DNA of 64,000 bases from Escherichia coli (GTDB taxonomy: Bacteria; Pseudomonadota; Gammaproteobacteria; Enterobacterales; Enterobacteriaceae): the NCBI RefSeq assembly GCF_050320075.1, contig NZ_CP190018.1. One strand, 5' to 3'. A model generated the notes under the pieces. It saw only the letters and a program-made list of their open reading frames with translations, did not search any database and was not told where the DNA came from. The translations under genes were made by a program, and so were the position numbers. Of the stretch, positions 10,318 to 13,374 are shown in pieces. The first letter of the stretch is position 1; each line of letters opens with the position of its first letter.

Positions 10318-10959
10318 TTACGCTTTCAAACCATACGTTTTGAATTTTTCAAGGACGATGGTCATTTCGGCTTCAGACAGCACGGGAACATCGTGATGTA
10401 ATCCGCCACATTTGATGTATAAATCAGCCAGCGTCTCGGTTTCACCCGCCAGCCACAACGTCTTTTCCAGCGTGACGTCCATGGCCAGCATACCGTGGTG
10501 CTGCATCAGCAAGGACTTACTTTCTCTGATTCCTTTAGATACACCGTCGGCCAGTTCAGGACTGCCAAAGGTATAATAGGGAATACAGGGAATATGATCC
10601 GTCCCCGATACCGCCACCATATAATGAATGGCCGGAATTGAATGATTATGTATTGCCACCGCCGTGGAATTCACCGCATGCGTATGTATGACAGCATTCA
10701 ATTCTGGTCTGGCTTTATAACACGCCAGATGAAATAACCATTCACTTGATGGTATTTTACCCGCTTCAGGTATTCCCTTATCGTCTACAAAGACAATCAT
10801 GTCCGGCGTCATCTTTGAATAAGCGATCCCACTCGGCGTAATCAACATGCCACCGGTATACCTGGCACTCACATTACCTGATGTTCCTTGATTAAGACCT
10901 GACGCATTCATTTCCCGACAAGTGGAAATGATTTTTTCTGCTAACTTAATCCGTTCCAT
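10318..10959 (-). CDS. Class II aldolase/adducin-family enzyme (putative 5-deoxyribulose-1-P / methylthioribulose-1-P aldolase)
   Basis: 213 aa; class II aldolase fold with histidine-rich metal-site residues; directly downstream of mtnA and mtnK homologues. Confidence 0.7.
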   Translation of the reverse strand: MERIKLAEKIISTCREMNASGLNQGTSGNVSARYTGGMLITPSGIAYSKMTPDMIVFVDDKGIPEAGKIPSSEWLFHLACYKARPELNAVIHTHAVNSTAVAIHNHSIPAIHYMVAVSGTDHIPCIPYYTFGSPELADGVSKGIRESKSLLMQHHGMLAMDVTLEKTLWLAGETETLADLYIKCGGLHHDVPVLSEAEMTIVLEKFKTYGLKA

Positions 10960-10989
10960 TCCTGATCCTTAATAGCAATGGCCGCCGTT

Positions 10990-12105
10990 TTAATGCTGTT
11001 CCCCCTGGAGTGCTTTACTCTTCAGGTCAGCAAACATATCCGCCAGCGCTGACTTACTGGCAGCACAGACTCCCCGCTCAGTAATGAAGCCGGTAATGTA
11101 TCGGGCAGGCGTGACGTCGAAAGCGTAGTTCCCACAACGGGTTCCTTCAGGGGCGGTATTGACCCAGCTCAATTCTCCCTGAGGGTTTATCCCATAGACA
11201 TGGGACTGCTCTTTTCCGTCACGTTGCTCAATCGGAATGCTTTTTCCGTCCTCGATAGTCCAGTCAATAGTGGGAGAAGGTAACGCGACGTAGAAGGGAA
11301 CATGGTTATCATGGGCCGCCAGCGCCTTAAGATAGGTACCAATTTTATTACAGACATCCCCTCTGGCCGTGGTTCGATCGGTCCCAACAATGCAGAGATC
11401 AACGTCACCGTGTTGCATCAGGTGGCCACCCGCGTTGTCGGCGATCAGGGTGTGAGGAATACCGTGTGAGCCCAGTTCAAATGCCGTGAGTCCGCCCTGA
11501 TTACGTGGCCGCGTTTCATCCACCCAGACGTGAACAGGGATTCCGTTTTCATGCGCTTTGTAGATGGGAGAAAGCGCGGTTCCCCAGTCTACAGTCGCCA
11601 GCCAGCCTGCGTTACAATGTGTCAGGATATTGACCACACTCCCGGCCGGTTTTTTCTGGGCTATTTCGCGGATGACTTCTGTACCATGTAATCCAATTTG
11701 TTCACACAACGCGACATCTTCCTCGGCAATTTCTGCCGCCAGCGCCCAGGCCACATCCTTGCGCTCTGATACACAGAGATCCTTCAGTGTGTCTATCATC
11801 CTGTCGAGGGCCCATTTGAGATTAATTGCCGTTGGTCGGGTTTTGATAAGAAGGTCATAGTAACGCTGCAGACCCATGTCACTGGCATCGTGATTCATTC
11901 CCAGCGCGATGCCATAGGCTGCAACGACACCAATAAGCGGAGCGCCACGAACCCACATCTCCTGAATAGCCGTAGCGGCCATTTCCGCAGAGGTAAGCGC
12001 CACCACCTCGAACTTAAAAGGCAACTTAGTCTGATCGATGATTTCTACCGCTTTTCCATCCCCGGAAACCCAGACCGTACGATAGTGTTTACCTTTAATA
12101 TTCAT
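10990..12105 (-). CDS. mtnA: Methylthioribose-1-phosphate isomerase family (MtnA/eIF2B-related)
   Basis: 371 aa; MtnA-like sequence ([29 protein letters not shown]). Confidence 0.8.
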
Positions 12106-12114
12106 AATGACCTC

Positions 12115-13374
12115 TTACTTAACCTTCGCAGACTGGATGACGGAATCCATATTTTTAAACTGGCGGGCATTGACGATAAGATCGCGCGCCATGGTCAATG
12201 CACGTCGTTCACATCCTGCGCGAAGCTCTGTATTTTCAATCTGTTTCAGCTCGGCAACGCCAGCAAAACCAATGATCCGGCGATTCATTTCCATGCCGGC
12301 ATTCACCAGGGAATCTTCAAGCAGCGTGGCAAAAAACTGATCCTGTGCGTCCTCAAGAGCGGCCCTGTTCTGTTGATACATTTCTGTCGGCCACGCGTCG
12401 CCCTGTGTTTTGTTGTCCCAGAGCTGGCGGAACTCCCGGGTGAAAACGGACCAGGTTTGGACAATCTGCTGAAGCAGCCATTCCTGATAGTCAGCGCGAC
12501 GTTGCTCATTCGCATCCCACCCAGGGCGTGAGAAGTACGCCAGCAGGAGGTTGCCAATATAGTTGCCGATATCAAACGCCATTGGCCCCATGAAACCGAA
12601 CTCCGGATCAATCACTTTGGTATCCGTGTCGGTCACCATGATTGAGCCTGAATGAAGGTCGCCATGTAACAATGCCTGCGCTTCTGTCATAAATTTGTAC
12701 TTATAACGCATGGCAACCTGGATCATCTCTACATCAGCCCAGGCCTTATGGACGGCATCGTCCAGCTCAGGAGAAGTCCAGTTATTCCGTTCAGCGTTGT
12801 AATAGGGCTCTGTGAAGATCAGATCTTCCGTAATTTTGCACAGCTCATGATTCAACGCGAACTCGGCAGTAAGCGCTTTTTTCTGTTCTGCTGACATGCC
12901 AATGTCAGACGTATTGAAGAGAGTCTGTGCTAAAAATCTGCCGATATCTTCAGCTAGTTTAGGGAATTTTTTACCGTTAATCAGTTCCTTACGCAGAATC
13001 ACGTGAGGAGTCAGATACTCCATGGCAAACAGCGCCATTTCCGGGTCGTAAAAATAGACCTGCGGAATCAGTGTGTGACCCGCGTACTTGGCTTCCTGAC
13101 ATAAGACGTTGTACTCAAAGCCCGCACGGCTCAGAGATAAAGGCCATCCTTCGCCCCCTGCACGAAGCCAGGGCAGAGCTTGTTTTACAATGATGGTTTT
13201 ATGTGTCCCCTCAACGATAAACACCATGTTCAGGTTTCCGTCCCCCACTTCTGAAACTTTCCACTCTTCAGGTAACCCTCCCGGTTCGCATGAAGGGGTC
13301 AGTCTGGACGAGAGATAACCCGGCAGCGTGTCACATGTCAGCGGCTTGTAACCTGATGGAATTGAATCCGTCAT
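12115..13374 (-). CDS. mtnK: Methylthioribose kinase family (MtnK)
   Basis: 419 aa; kinase-like fold and MtnK-like length; first gene of the three-gene operon. Confidence 0.8.
   Translation of the reverse strand: MTDSIPSGYKPLTCDTLPGYLSSRLTPSCEPGGLPEEWKVSEVGDGNLNMVFIVEGTHKTIIVKQALPWLRAGGEGWPLSLSRAGFEYNVLCQEAKYAGHTLIPQVYFYDPEMALFAMEYLTPHVILRKELINGKKFPKLAEDIGRFLAQTLFNTSDIGMSAEQKKALTAEFALNHELCKITEDLIFTEPYYNAERNNWTSPELDDAVHKAWADVEMIQVAMRYKYKFMTEAQALLHGDLHSGSIMVTDTDTKVIDPEFGFMGPMAFDIGNYIGNLLLAYFSRPGWDANEQRRADYQEWLLQQIVQTWSVFTREFRQLWDNKTQGDAWPTEMYQQNRAALEDAQDQFFATLLEDSLVNAGMEMNRRIIGFAGVAELKQIENTELRAGCERRALTMARDLIVNARQFKNMDSVIQSAKVK

Follow-up and report, generated by a model that had tools for sequence, protein, structure and literature searches.

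Gene content and predicted regulation of the locus

The window, that is, the whole 64,000-nt stretch of Escherichia coli DNA analysed here, was proposed in an initial annotation to carry a kinase, an isomerase and a class II aldolase at 10318-13374. ORFs were found at these positions, and the NCBIfam matches agree with all three assignments. The interval covers the enzyme genes but omits the leader/promoter region (13375-14173) and the mtnR/yjhU gene (5476-6462), both of which are listed here with the enzymes.

13375..14173, minus strand: operon leader/promoter region, 799 bp, 100% identical to the ATCC 25922 leader
12115..13374, minus strand: mtnK, kinase of the MtnK family with 5-methylthioribose/5-deoxyribose as substrate, 419 aa (= ATCC 25922 DR76_RS12400, WP_000132325.1)
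10990..12105, minus strand: mtnA, 5-methylthioribose-1-P/5-deoxyribose-1-P isomerase, 371 aa (= ATCC 25922 DR76_RS12405, WP_001022015.1)
10318..10959, minus strand: ald2, class II (FucA-like) aldolase, 213 aa (= ATCC 25922 DR76_RS12410, WP_000439686.1)
6475..6498, both strands: G+C-rich, terminator-like hairpin where mtnR and the permease gene converge (consensus scan)
5476..6462, plus strand: yjhU = mtnR, DeoR/SorC-type repressor of the operon (= ATCC 25922 DR76_RS12420, WP_000373366.1)

The three enzyme genes are co-directional minus-strand ORFs separated by intergenic gaps of 9 and 30 nt. MtnK matched the equivalog TIGR01767 over its full length with 522 bits (cut-off 275), and MtnA matched TIGR00512 with 410 bits (cut-off 279; NCBIfam). 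Chance is excluded because the family matches have E-values of 1e-110 to 1e-157 (NCBIfam) and the synteny is kept in more than 1,000 genomes. At the DNA level, mtnK, mtnA, ald2, the 799-bp leader and yjhU/mtnR are 100% identical to those of E. coli ATCC 25922, and the RefSeq protein accessions of these genes are the same as in that strain; a full-text literature search for these accessions found no mention of them. The DHAP shunt architecture suggested initially is thus that of an experimentally characterised operon. Co-transcription of the three genes was demonstrated in ATCC 25922 (PMC12632272), and identity to that strain suggests that they are co-transcribed here as well.

The leader corresponds to the entry CP123240.1:4420944-4421742 in Dataset S3 of PMC12632272. 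Two transcription start sites, repression by MtnR, and CRP binding and control have been reported for the operon, with a regulated promoter, P1, located 66-126 bp upstream of mtnK (about 13440-13500 in the window) and a start site 72 bp upstream of mtnK (about 13446) (PMC12632272). Given the identity of the leaders, P1 and CRP control may be assigned to the present locus, in which the following minus-strand elements were recognised.

13475-13446, minus strand: sigma-70-like candidate TTCAAA-18-AATAAT (consensus scan)
13459-13431, minus strand: sigma-70-like candidate GTGTCA-17-GATAAT, overlapping the preceding candidate (consensus scan)
13453-13436, minus strand: semi-palindrome CAAAT-N8-ATTTG (sequence reading)
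13387-13381, minus strand: Shine-Dalgarno sequence AAGGAGA (sequence reading)

The published start site does not choose between the two overlapping sigma-70-like candidates. The spacing of the semi-palindrome is 8 nt in the window sequence, as compared with the 9 x's printed in PMC12632272. An Rfam scan covering 6300-15600 (E<=1) yielded no riboswitch or other structured RNA for this unusually long and conserved leader. With regard to MtnR, its repressor function has been demonstrated (PMC12632272); the protein gave a DeoR-repressor-like match of 211 bits, which is under the equivalog cut-off (NCBIfam). Its gene is convergent with the permease gene of the operon, and the hairpin at 6475..6498 between them may function as a terminator.

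The aldolase and the pathway assignment

Ald2 was assigned to the L-fuculose-phosphate aldolase subfamily NF005984 with 364 bits (cut-off 264; NCBIfam), and it aligned gap-free over its whole length with E. coli FucA (1FUA) at 58.5% identity. FucA residues N29, G44, S71, S72, E73, H92, H94, Y113, H155 and Y209 are all conserved in Ald2, and the metal-binding (zinc) and catalytic residues are kept. Matches below the respective cut-offs were obtained with the fucA equivalog TIGR01086 (317.8 bits; cut-off 400.25), NF006672 (65 bits; cut-off 226) and the MtnB dehydratase equivalog TIGR03328 (64.5 bits; cut-off 137). The bit scores against individual proteins were 273 for E. coli FucA and 117 for Bacillus thuringiensis DrdA (PDB 6BTD). 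The original enzymology of the DHAP shunt was reportedly described by North et al. 2020. Published activity of Ald2 is the cleavage of 5-deoxyribulose-1-P or 5-methylthioribulose-1-P to DHAP and acetaldehyde or 2-methylthioacetaldehyde.

These scores bear on the possibility that the cluster is the start of classical (universal) methionine salvage, in which MtnK and MtnA would be followed by an MtnB dehydratase, with the other enzymes encoded elsewhere. MtnK and MtnA do exceed the equivalog cut-offs of methionine-salvage families, class II aldolases and MtnB have a common fold and zinc ligands, and Ald2 gave the weak MtnB match of 64.5 bits noted above. However, the same protein scored 364 bits on a FucA-type subfamily and is related to E. 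coli FucA along its full length, and the genes for the dehydratase, enolase-phosphatase and dioxygenase (mtnB/C/D/W/X) are annotated neither in the window nor in the 30 kb to its left and the 49 kb to its right, about 143 kb in total, in the near-identical genome NZ_CP123240.1 (6 mismatches over 64 kb). The initial annotation had reported such genes to be lacking from the window, as the annotation of NZ_CP123240.1 bears out, and had named two observations that would speak against its own reading, an aldolase aligning as a true MtnB and mtnC/mtnD homologues just outside the window; by score Ald2 is not MtnB, and neither flank carries an annotated mtnC or mtnD. In ATCC 25922, moreover, no significant part of the sulfur of 5'-methylthioadenosine (MTA) returns to methionine; it builds up as 2-methylthioethanol (PMC10986504). 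Given how the third enzyme scored on these families and the lack of annotated mtnB/C/D over about 143 kb, we rejected classical methionine salvage; it is effectively refuted, with a probability close to nil.

The RefSeq name for Ald2 is 'L-fuculose-phosphate aldolase'. Ald2 could accordingly be a second enzyme of this type, in a cluster that serves fucose or another 6-deoxyhexose and not 5-deoxypentoses, and its greater closeness to E. coli FucA than to DrdA would fit such a role, as does the RefSeq name. Nevertheless, Ald2 with its 318 bits does not reach the 400 bits required for the FucA equivalog, and its operon partners are MtnK and MtnA, not FucI, FucK or fucO. Furthermore, for growth on 5-deoxyribose the three-gene block is both required and sufficient (PMC10986504), and 5-deoxyribose induces the operon about 7.5 log2-fold (PMC12632272). 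A true FucA was rejected on account of this equivalog score and of an operon context that does not fit, and we consider this reading highly improbable.

The genetic evidence for the DHAP shunt comes from ATCC 25922, in which loss of mtnK-mtnA-ald2 abolished growth on 5-deoxyribose, 5'-deoxyadenosine and MTA, and a plasmid with the three genes restored growth to the deletion strain and conferred it on K-12 (PMC10986504). Published genetics treats mtnK-mtnA-ald2 as one block, all three genes having been deleted together. On the strength of sequence identity, the steps demonstrated for the ATCC 25922 genes would proceed here as follows. Pfs, a housekeeping nucleosidase encoded elsewhere, would strip adenine off 5'-deoxyadenosine or 5'-methylthioadenosine; the resulting 5-deoxyribose or 5-methylthioribose would be phosphorylated at C1 by MtnK and isomerised by MtnA to the ribulose-1-phosphate form, and Ald2 would then cleave this product to DHAP, which would enter glycolysis, and acetaldehyde or 2-methylthioacetaldehyde. 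The Pfs/MtnN nucleosidase, which acts on MTA and 5'-deoxyadenosine, is conserved in all E. coli (PMC10986504), and its gene lies outside the window. Transcription would start in the 799-bp leader, with MtnR (YjhU) repressing in the absence of substrate and cAMP-CRP activating in the absence of glucose; this dual control would therefore mark an alternative carbon-source pathway in E. coli. Salvage of by-products into DHAP and an aldehyde, as originally proposed, is right as to the chemistry, but the published role in E. coli is the use of exogenous 5'-deoxynucleosides and 5-deoxypentoses as carbon sources, and not endogenous by-product or sulfur salvage or detoxification, the last of which showed no phenotype (PMC10986504, PMC12632272).

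The MtnK variant of the DHAP shunt is marked by an MtnK kinase, an MtnA isomerase and a class II aldolase in a cluster, all found here, and by a regulated promoter with an adjacent mtnR, which the locus has by sequence identity. An intact fourth-gene permease is lacking, the gene being split by an insertion sequence, which is the one feature of the locus that is out of the ordinary. We conclude that 10318-13374 on the minus strand almost certainly represents the DHAP shunt operon already known from the leuX genomic island of E. coli, and that all three enzyme genes are intact. Nothing in the sequence speaks against the identification. The operon system is already known, and the window brings no new biology on the pathway.

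The interrupted permease gene

The initial annotation described a three-gene operon located between an IS66 element and a defence island. The three enzyme genes are indeed present, but the published operon has four genes, with mtnK, mtnA and ald2 joined by a permease that is 'invariably' present (PMC12632272). Both flanks are also as described, but the IS66 element is not a mere neighbour, as it interrupts the permease gene.

10132..10214, minus strand: permease gene, 5' fragment with its start codon at 10214 and 27 codons of its own before a stop just within the IS
7433..10131, minus strand: IS66-family (ISCro1-like) element, 2,699 bp, in the same orientation as the operon (ORFs and annotation)
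9401-10078, minus strand: tnpA of the element, intact
9054-9401, minus strand: tnpB of the element, intact
7463-9034, minus strand: transposase gene of the element, intact
6503..7432, minus strand: 3' remnant of the permease (GRP-family) gene, codons about 26-334

The element has the ends GTAAGCG.../...CGGTTAC and is bounded by an 8-bp direct repeat, with the right copy of the target duplication, GTTGTATT, at 10132-10139 and the left copy at 7425-7432; the empty site was defined by the uninterrupted loci of Nissle 1917 and ATCC 25922. The 5' fragment reproduces the opening 83 nt of the ATCC 25922 transporter gene without a mismatch, and its product, MFIVESYAVAIIMCFITMICWGSWANTT*, terminates within the IS. 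The 3' remnant differs from the corresponding suffix of the ATCC 25922 transporter by one mismatch (S148I). Its longest ORF (6503-7360, 285 aa) starts with TTG and is without residues 1-49, and no in-frame start was found between the transposase stop codon and this TTG at 7360. The intact permease has 334 aa and matches RhaT weakly over its full length; the remnant ORF has lost the first hydrophobic segment (residues 2-20) together with a portion of the second. Most probably, judging from this structure, the insertion inactivated the fourth-gene permease, a protein of unknown function. The RefSeq annotation treats the 285-aa remnant as an intact transporter, and for this reason a small annotation warning is warranted. 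The IS-permease junction was present in 2 of 5,426 complete E. coli genomes. In Dataset S2 of PMC12632272, the operon reference is likewise split for CP123240.1, into positions 1-3246 and 3236-4165.

The insertion raises the question of whether the operon in this strain is a decaying, silent remnant, in which loss of uptake, destabilisation of the transcript or both leave no growth supported by the pathway. The IS splits the fourth gene after 27 codons, leaving it unable to produce the first 49 residues of the protein; some strains have a truncated operon or have lost it, 'often due to insertional sequences' (PMC12632272); and the locus does erode, because all that K-12-type strains keep of the permease gene is its final ~57 bp. 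The insertion, however, lies downstream of all three enzyme genes, and the enzyme genes, leader and mtnR are mutation-free relative to ATCC 25922, while the intact IS, the perfect 8-bp duplication and the rarity of the junction (2/5,426) indicate a recent event and not long decay. K-12, which is without the permease gene, grows on 5 mM 5-deoxyribose with mtnK-mtnA-ald2 alone (PMC10986504). A silent remnant is thus improbable in our view. Because the three genes suffice in K-12, catabolic capacity is probably kept in the IS-split strain, and the permease, dispensable for that growth, is therefore not defining for the chemistry of the DHAP shunt. Uptake would in that case fall to other transporters, and it may be less efficient where the substrate is dilute.

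Because the element is co-oriented with the operon just downstream of ald2, and no strong terminator was seen between ald2 and the IS66 element, one may also propose that read-through from the MtnR/CRP-controlled promoter makes expression of the IS66 transposase responsive to 5-deoxyribose and glucose starvation, and that it leads to weak expression of the truncated permease. We put this proposal forward tentatively and regard it as rather unlikely. Apart from any read-through, the rare allele, as a natural permease-null, could reveal the part of the permease in the scavenging of 5'-deoxynucleosides at the ~100 uM reported for urine. The local value of the locus lies in this rare natural knock-out of the uncharacterised permease of the operon, which provides a ready-made strain for the permease question.

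Genomic context and comparison with known systems

The DHAP shunt turns waste 5'-deoxynucleosides into carbon and energy, a significance already established, and as a metabolic trait it is lineage-associated in extraintestinal pathogenic E. coli, ST131 and STc69 among them (PMC10986504, PMC12632272, PMC13001218). With it, some strains can grow on 5-deoxy-sugars left over as waste from S-adenosylmethionine reactions. We found the operon in about 1,075-1,205 of 5,426 complete E. coli genomes, mostly at an identity of at least 99%. The operon site is the far end of the leuX island: in NZ_CP123240.1, the leuX tRNA-Leu and an integrase are located about 37 kb past the window end, adjoining ahr/yjgR/lptG, which agrees with the leuX-associated island named in the initial annotation. 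The core-side genes yjhU and yjhF adjoin the operon, and on the side opposite to the IS66 element lie McrBC and a type IIS restriction-modification system (15532-23553). A plasmid-borne mobile operon was considered and is unsupported; PLSDB gave four matches, two of them chromosome-sized and two plasmid records of about 160 kb.

The closest known system is the DHAP shunt of ATCC 25922 (Huening et al. 2024, PMC10986504; Huening et al. 2025, PMC12632272), which has identical DNA for mtnK, mtnA, ald2, the leader and mtnR. The neighbours are likewise shared, with yjhU/yjhF to one side and a GT2 fragment followed by McrBC-type genes to the other, as is the location in the distal part of the leuX island, at its end. 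It differs in that the permease gene of the window is split by the IS after 27 codons and carries S148I in its 3' part, and in that the McrB gene is truncated in ATCC 25922 but intact in the window. The drdK-drdI-drdA cluster of Bacillus thuringiensis (Beaudoin et al. 2018, PMC6079011; DrdA 6BTD/6BTG) has the same three-gene architecture, in which a kinase, an isomerase and a class II aldolase lead to DHAP and acetaldehyde. DrdA is, however, distant from Ald2 (117 bits to 6BTD vs. 273 to E. coli FucA), and the Bacillus system serves 5-deoxyribose detoxification beside complete methionine salvage, whereas that of E. coli serves carbon-source use (PMC10986504). By published description, the DHAP shunt of Rhodospirillum rubrum and Rhodopseudomonas palustris likewise runs through the isomerase and the aldolase to the same products, but in it the MtnP phosphorylase replaces the nucleosidase and MtnK, and it has low-level constitutive expression and salvages sulfur to methionine (PMC10986504, PMC12632272).

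Universal methionine salvage (MtnK, MtnA, MtnB, MtnC or MtnW/X, MtnD) has its first two enzymes in the same equivalog families as the window, but the third enzyme of the window is an aldolase, no downstream genes are nearby, and methionine is not significantly regenerated in the reference strain ATCC 25922 (PMC10986504). L-fucose and L-rhamnose catabolism in E. coli (FucA, RhaD, RhaT) is analogous, as a ketose-1-phosphate is formed from a deoxy-sugar and a class II aldolase then splits it into DHAP and an aldehyde, and the operon's permease weakly resembles the rhamnose/H+ symporter RhaT over its full length. The shunt differs from these routes in that its substrates are 5-deoxypentoses, in that the aldose is phosphorylated at C1 before isomerisation, and in that Ald2 falls below the equivalog cut-off of FucA.

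Enzyme genes and identity with the ATCC 25922 operon

The initial annotation described a kinase, an isomerase and a class II aldolase in one block, and all three ORFs were found at exactly the coordinates it had given, on the minus strand, with intergenic gaps of 9 nt (mtnK-mtnA) and 30 nt (mtnA-ald2).

Features of the operon region (window coordinates)
6503-7432, minus: 930-bp 3' remnant of the permease gene, with one substitution (S148I)
6503-7360, minus: longest ORF of the remnant, 285 aa, TTG start at 7360 (WP_215197741.1)
7433-10131, same orientation as the operon: IS66 element, 2,699 bp, with intact tnpA, tnpB and transposase genes
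10318-10959, minus: ald2 (class II aldolase), 213 aa, by ORF search and NCBIfam
10990-12105, minus: mtnA, 371 aa, by ORF search and NCBIfam
12115-13374, minus: mtnK, 419 aa, by ORF search and NCBIfam
14174-14428, plus: 84-aa "glycosyltransferase family 2" ORF (WP_000788354.1), bounding the 799-bp leader upstream of mtnK
15532-23553: defence cluster

NCBIfam models identified the 419-aa ORF as a full-length S-methyl-5-thioribose kinase (TIGR01767, 522 bits versus a cut-off of 275), the 371-aa ORF as S-methyl-5-thioribose-1-phosphate isomerase (TIGR00512, 410 versus 279), and the 213-aa ORF as a class II aldolase of the FucA type (subfamily NF005984, 364 versus 264). A true MtnB dehydratase was ruled out by the equivalog TIGR03328 (64.5 bits versus a cut-off of 137), and the earlier aldolase call clearly stands. 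The alignment of Ald2 with E. coli FucA (PDB 1FUA and related entries; 58.5% identity, 273 bits) is gap-free, and Ald2 keeps FucA positions N29, G44, S71, S72, E73, H92, H94, Y113, H155 and Y209. Ald2 fell under the curated FucA equivalog cut-off (318 versus 400 bits); its sequence marks it as a paralogue of FucA rather than FucA itself.

We retrieved the locus of the experimentally characterised strain ATCC 25922 via the coordinates in Dataset S2 of PMC12632272, and direct DNA comparison demonstrated that mtnK, mtnA, ald2, the repressor gene yjhU/mtnR and the entire 799-bp leader are 100% identical. Given this identity, the sequence evidence for membership in the known (CHARACTERISED) system could not be firmer, and the DHAP-shunt interpretation of the initial annotation was supported. 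Dataset S3 of the same paper, published in 2025, lists the exact leader of the window, from strain YZLc1-3, as well as Nissle leaders. The finding is the correct identification of an operon already known and well studied.

The three-gene block was present in 1,075 of 5,426 complete E. coli genomes, mostly at at least 99% identity, including ST131 (O25b:H4) strains and Nissle 1917 (NZ_CP022686.1), whose locus (L001 14082-18246) has the mtnK-mtnA-ald2-permease operon in full, with genes identical to those of the window. A 2026 survey found the corresponding pathways in about 82% of STc131 and reported their enrichment in STc69 (PMC13001218). The operon is essentially chromosomal: four records of the plasmid collection matched it, two of them chromosome-sized. 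In two E. coli plasmid records of ~160 kb, CP088711.1 (1402-4401) and NZ_CP126938.1 (1-1774), all or part of the operon stands at the record start with 98% identity; these could be either real plasmid-borne copies or assembly artefacts.

An IS66 element inside the permease gene

At the ATCC 25922 locus, the fourth gene of the published operon follows ald2 after 103 nt and encodes a 334-aa permease of the GRP family. The initial annotation noted an IS66 element beside the operon; the element does adjoin it, but alignment with the uninterrupted Nissle 1917 and ATCC 25922 loci showed it to be more than a neighbour, since it is inserted inside the permease gene, which had been missed. A perfect 8-bp target duplication, GTTGTATT, flanks the element (7425-7432 and 10132-10139). 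From the permease start codon at 10214, 27 native codons are followed by entry into the element and, after one further codon, a stop. The 285-aa remnant is without residues 1-49 of the permease, which comprise its first hydrophobic segment and some of the second; RefSeq/PGAP labels it an intact "GRP family sugar transporter" and not a pseudogene, which is misleading. A transposase-permease fusion protein is impossible because the transposase stop codon (7463-7465) is in frame with the remnant, just 10 codons upstream, and no in-frame start codon lies between this stop and the TTG at 7360.

A 140-bp probe across the IS/permease boundary found full-length matches only in YZLc1-3 (chicken) and Ec-U3 (human), two of the 5,426 complete genomes; the end of ald2 and the permease occurred in one unbroken piece in 1,205. 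In Dataset S2 of PMC12632272, CP123240.1 and CP190018.1 both show this split, so that it is already in the public record; no discussion of it was found in the available text sections of that paper. Over its full length, the intact permease weakly resembles the rhamnose/H+ symporter RhaT, in keeping with a deoxy-sugar carrier. In K-12-type genomes (DH5alpha, NEB10-beta, KLY, MT102 and others), the match is limited to the final ~57 bp of the permease ORF and the 34-bp spacer by yjhU (positions 6389-6480 of the ATCC 25922 locus, L006). This remnant looks like a scar, as if operon-less strains lost the operon via a deletion ending inside the permease gene.

Regulation and genomic setting

According to PMC12632272 (2025), mtnK, mtnA, ald2 and the adjacent putative permease form one operon, whose regulated primary promoter lies 66-126 bp ahead of mtnK. 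YjhU, renamed MtnR, represses the operon, which is also subject to CRP-dependent catabolite repression. Over the P1 promoter lies a semi-palindrome (13436-13453, minus), CAAAT-AATTTTAC-ATTTG, with a spacer of 8 nt, versus nine x's as printed in that paper, a discrepancy that is trivial, yet relevant for defining the MtnR operator. An Rfam scan of the operon and its surroundings, the long leader among them, detected no known RNA family. The 84-aa ORF beyond the leader, which seems to be the N-terminal piece of a longer gene, also occurs in ATCC 25922 and Nissle.

The window aligns colinearly with 4407570-4471569 of E. coli YZLc1-3 (NZ_CP123240.1), with only six differences in 64,000 positions (37398, 44585, 60348, 60560, 60563 and 60569), four of which cluster in an IS1A copy (~60223-60920) and one in a frameshifted transposase gene. 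Either the window comes from a very close relative, or assembly of repeated IS copies accounts for the differences. The RefSeq annotation of YZLc1-3 served as an independent annotation of the window and its surroundings. In agreement with the initial annotation, it contains no dehydratase, enolase-phosphatase or dioxygenase genes in the window; nor are these, mtnC and mtnD included, annotated in the 30 kb to the left, which hold uxu, fim, nan and sgc genes, or in the 49 kb to the right.

No tRNA gene lies in the window; in YZLc1-3, a tRNA-Leu gene and an adjacent tyrosine integrase are found ~37 kb past its right end, beside ahr, yjgR and lptG/F. This places the operon at the far, core-proximal end of the leuX island (roughly 90 kb), directly adjoining yjhU and yjhF, which confirms the leuX-island location of the initial annotation and exactly matches that in PMC10986504 and PMC12632272. 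Near the integrase end, the YZLc1-3 island carries the DNA phosphorothioation system dndBCDE and dptFGH (L004 17072-31924, beyond the window). The leader is flanked on its other side, as first described, by the defence cluster, which encodes an McrB-family protein (691 aa), McrC, a type IIS Alw26I/Eco31I/Esp3I-family endonuclease and two methyltransferases. The McrB-family gene is intact in the window, split by ISEc52 in Nissle 1917 and truncated in ATCC 25922; the type IIS restriction-modification genes fall within a region poor in G+C (0.31-0.38 at 19-24 kb).

Pathway role and comparison with known systems

The pathway was demonstrated in ATCC 25922 and is extended to the window strain by identity. 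Pfs would free 5-deoxyribose or 5-methylthioribose from nucleosides, MtnK would phosphorylate and MtnA then isomerise the sugar, and Ald2 would split the ribulose-1-phosphate into DHAP and acetaldehyde or 2-methylthioacetaldehyde. The latter yields 2-methylthioethanol, not methionine, in E. coli (PMC10986504). The DHAP-plus-aldehyde chemistry of the initial annotation holds, but its by-product salvage role is refined: the pathway serves neither detoxification nor significant sulfur salvage, but catabolite-repressed use of an alternative carbon source (PMC10986504, PMC12632272).

We infer that enzymatic capacity is intact in the window strain, because the three enzyme genes all precede the insertion and the sequence upstream of it is unaltered, and that dedicated uptake is probably lost. 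ATCC 25922 lacking mtnK-mtnA-ald2 could not grow on 5-deoxyribose, 5'-deoxyadenosine or MTA; a plasmid with the three genes restored growth and also enabled K-12 to grow on 5-deoxyribose, "without any additional factors" (PMC10986504). Complete loss of the phenotype is unlikely, since K-12, which has no permease, needs only the three enzymes to grow on 5 mM 5-deoxyribose (PMC10986504); at low substrate concentrations, loss of the permease could plausibly matter.

Among known systems, the ATCC 25922 operon comes closest, being identical save for the insertion. The drdK-drdI-drdA genes of B. thuringiensis share the chemistry but serve detoxification, and E. coli FucA is much closer to Ald2 than their aldolase (PDB 6BTD) is (273 versus 117 bits). 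Unlike the E. coli pathway, the DHAP shunt of Rhodospirillum and Rhodopseudomonas is phosphorylase-based and serves sulfur salvage.
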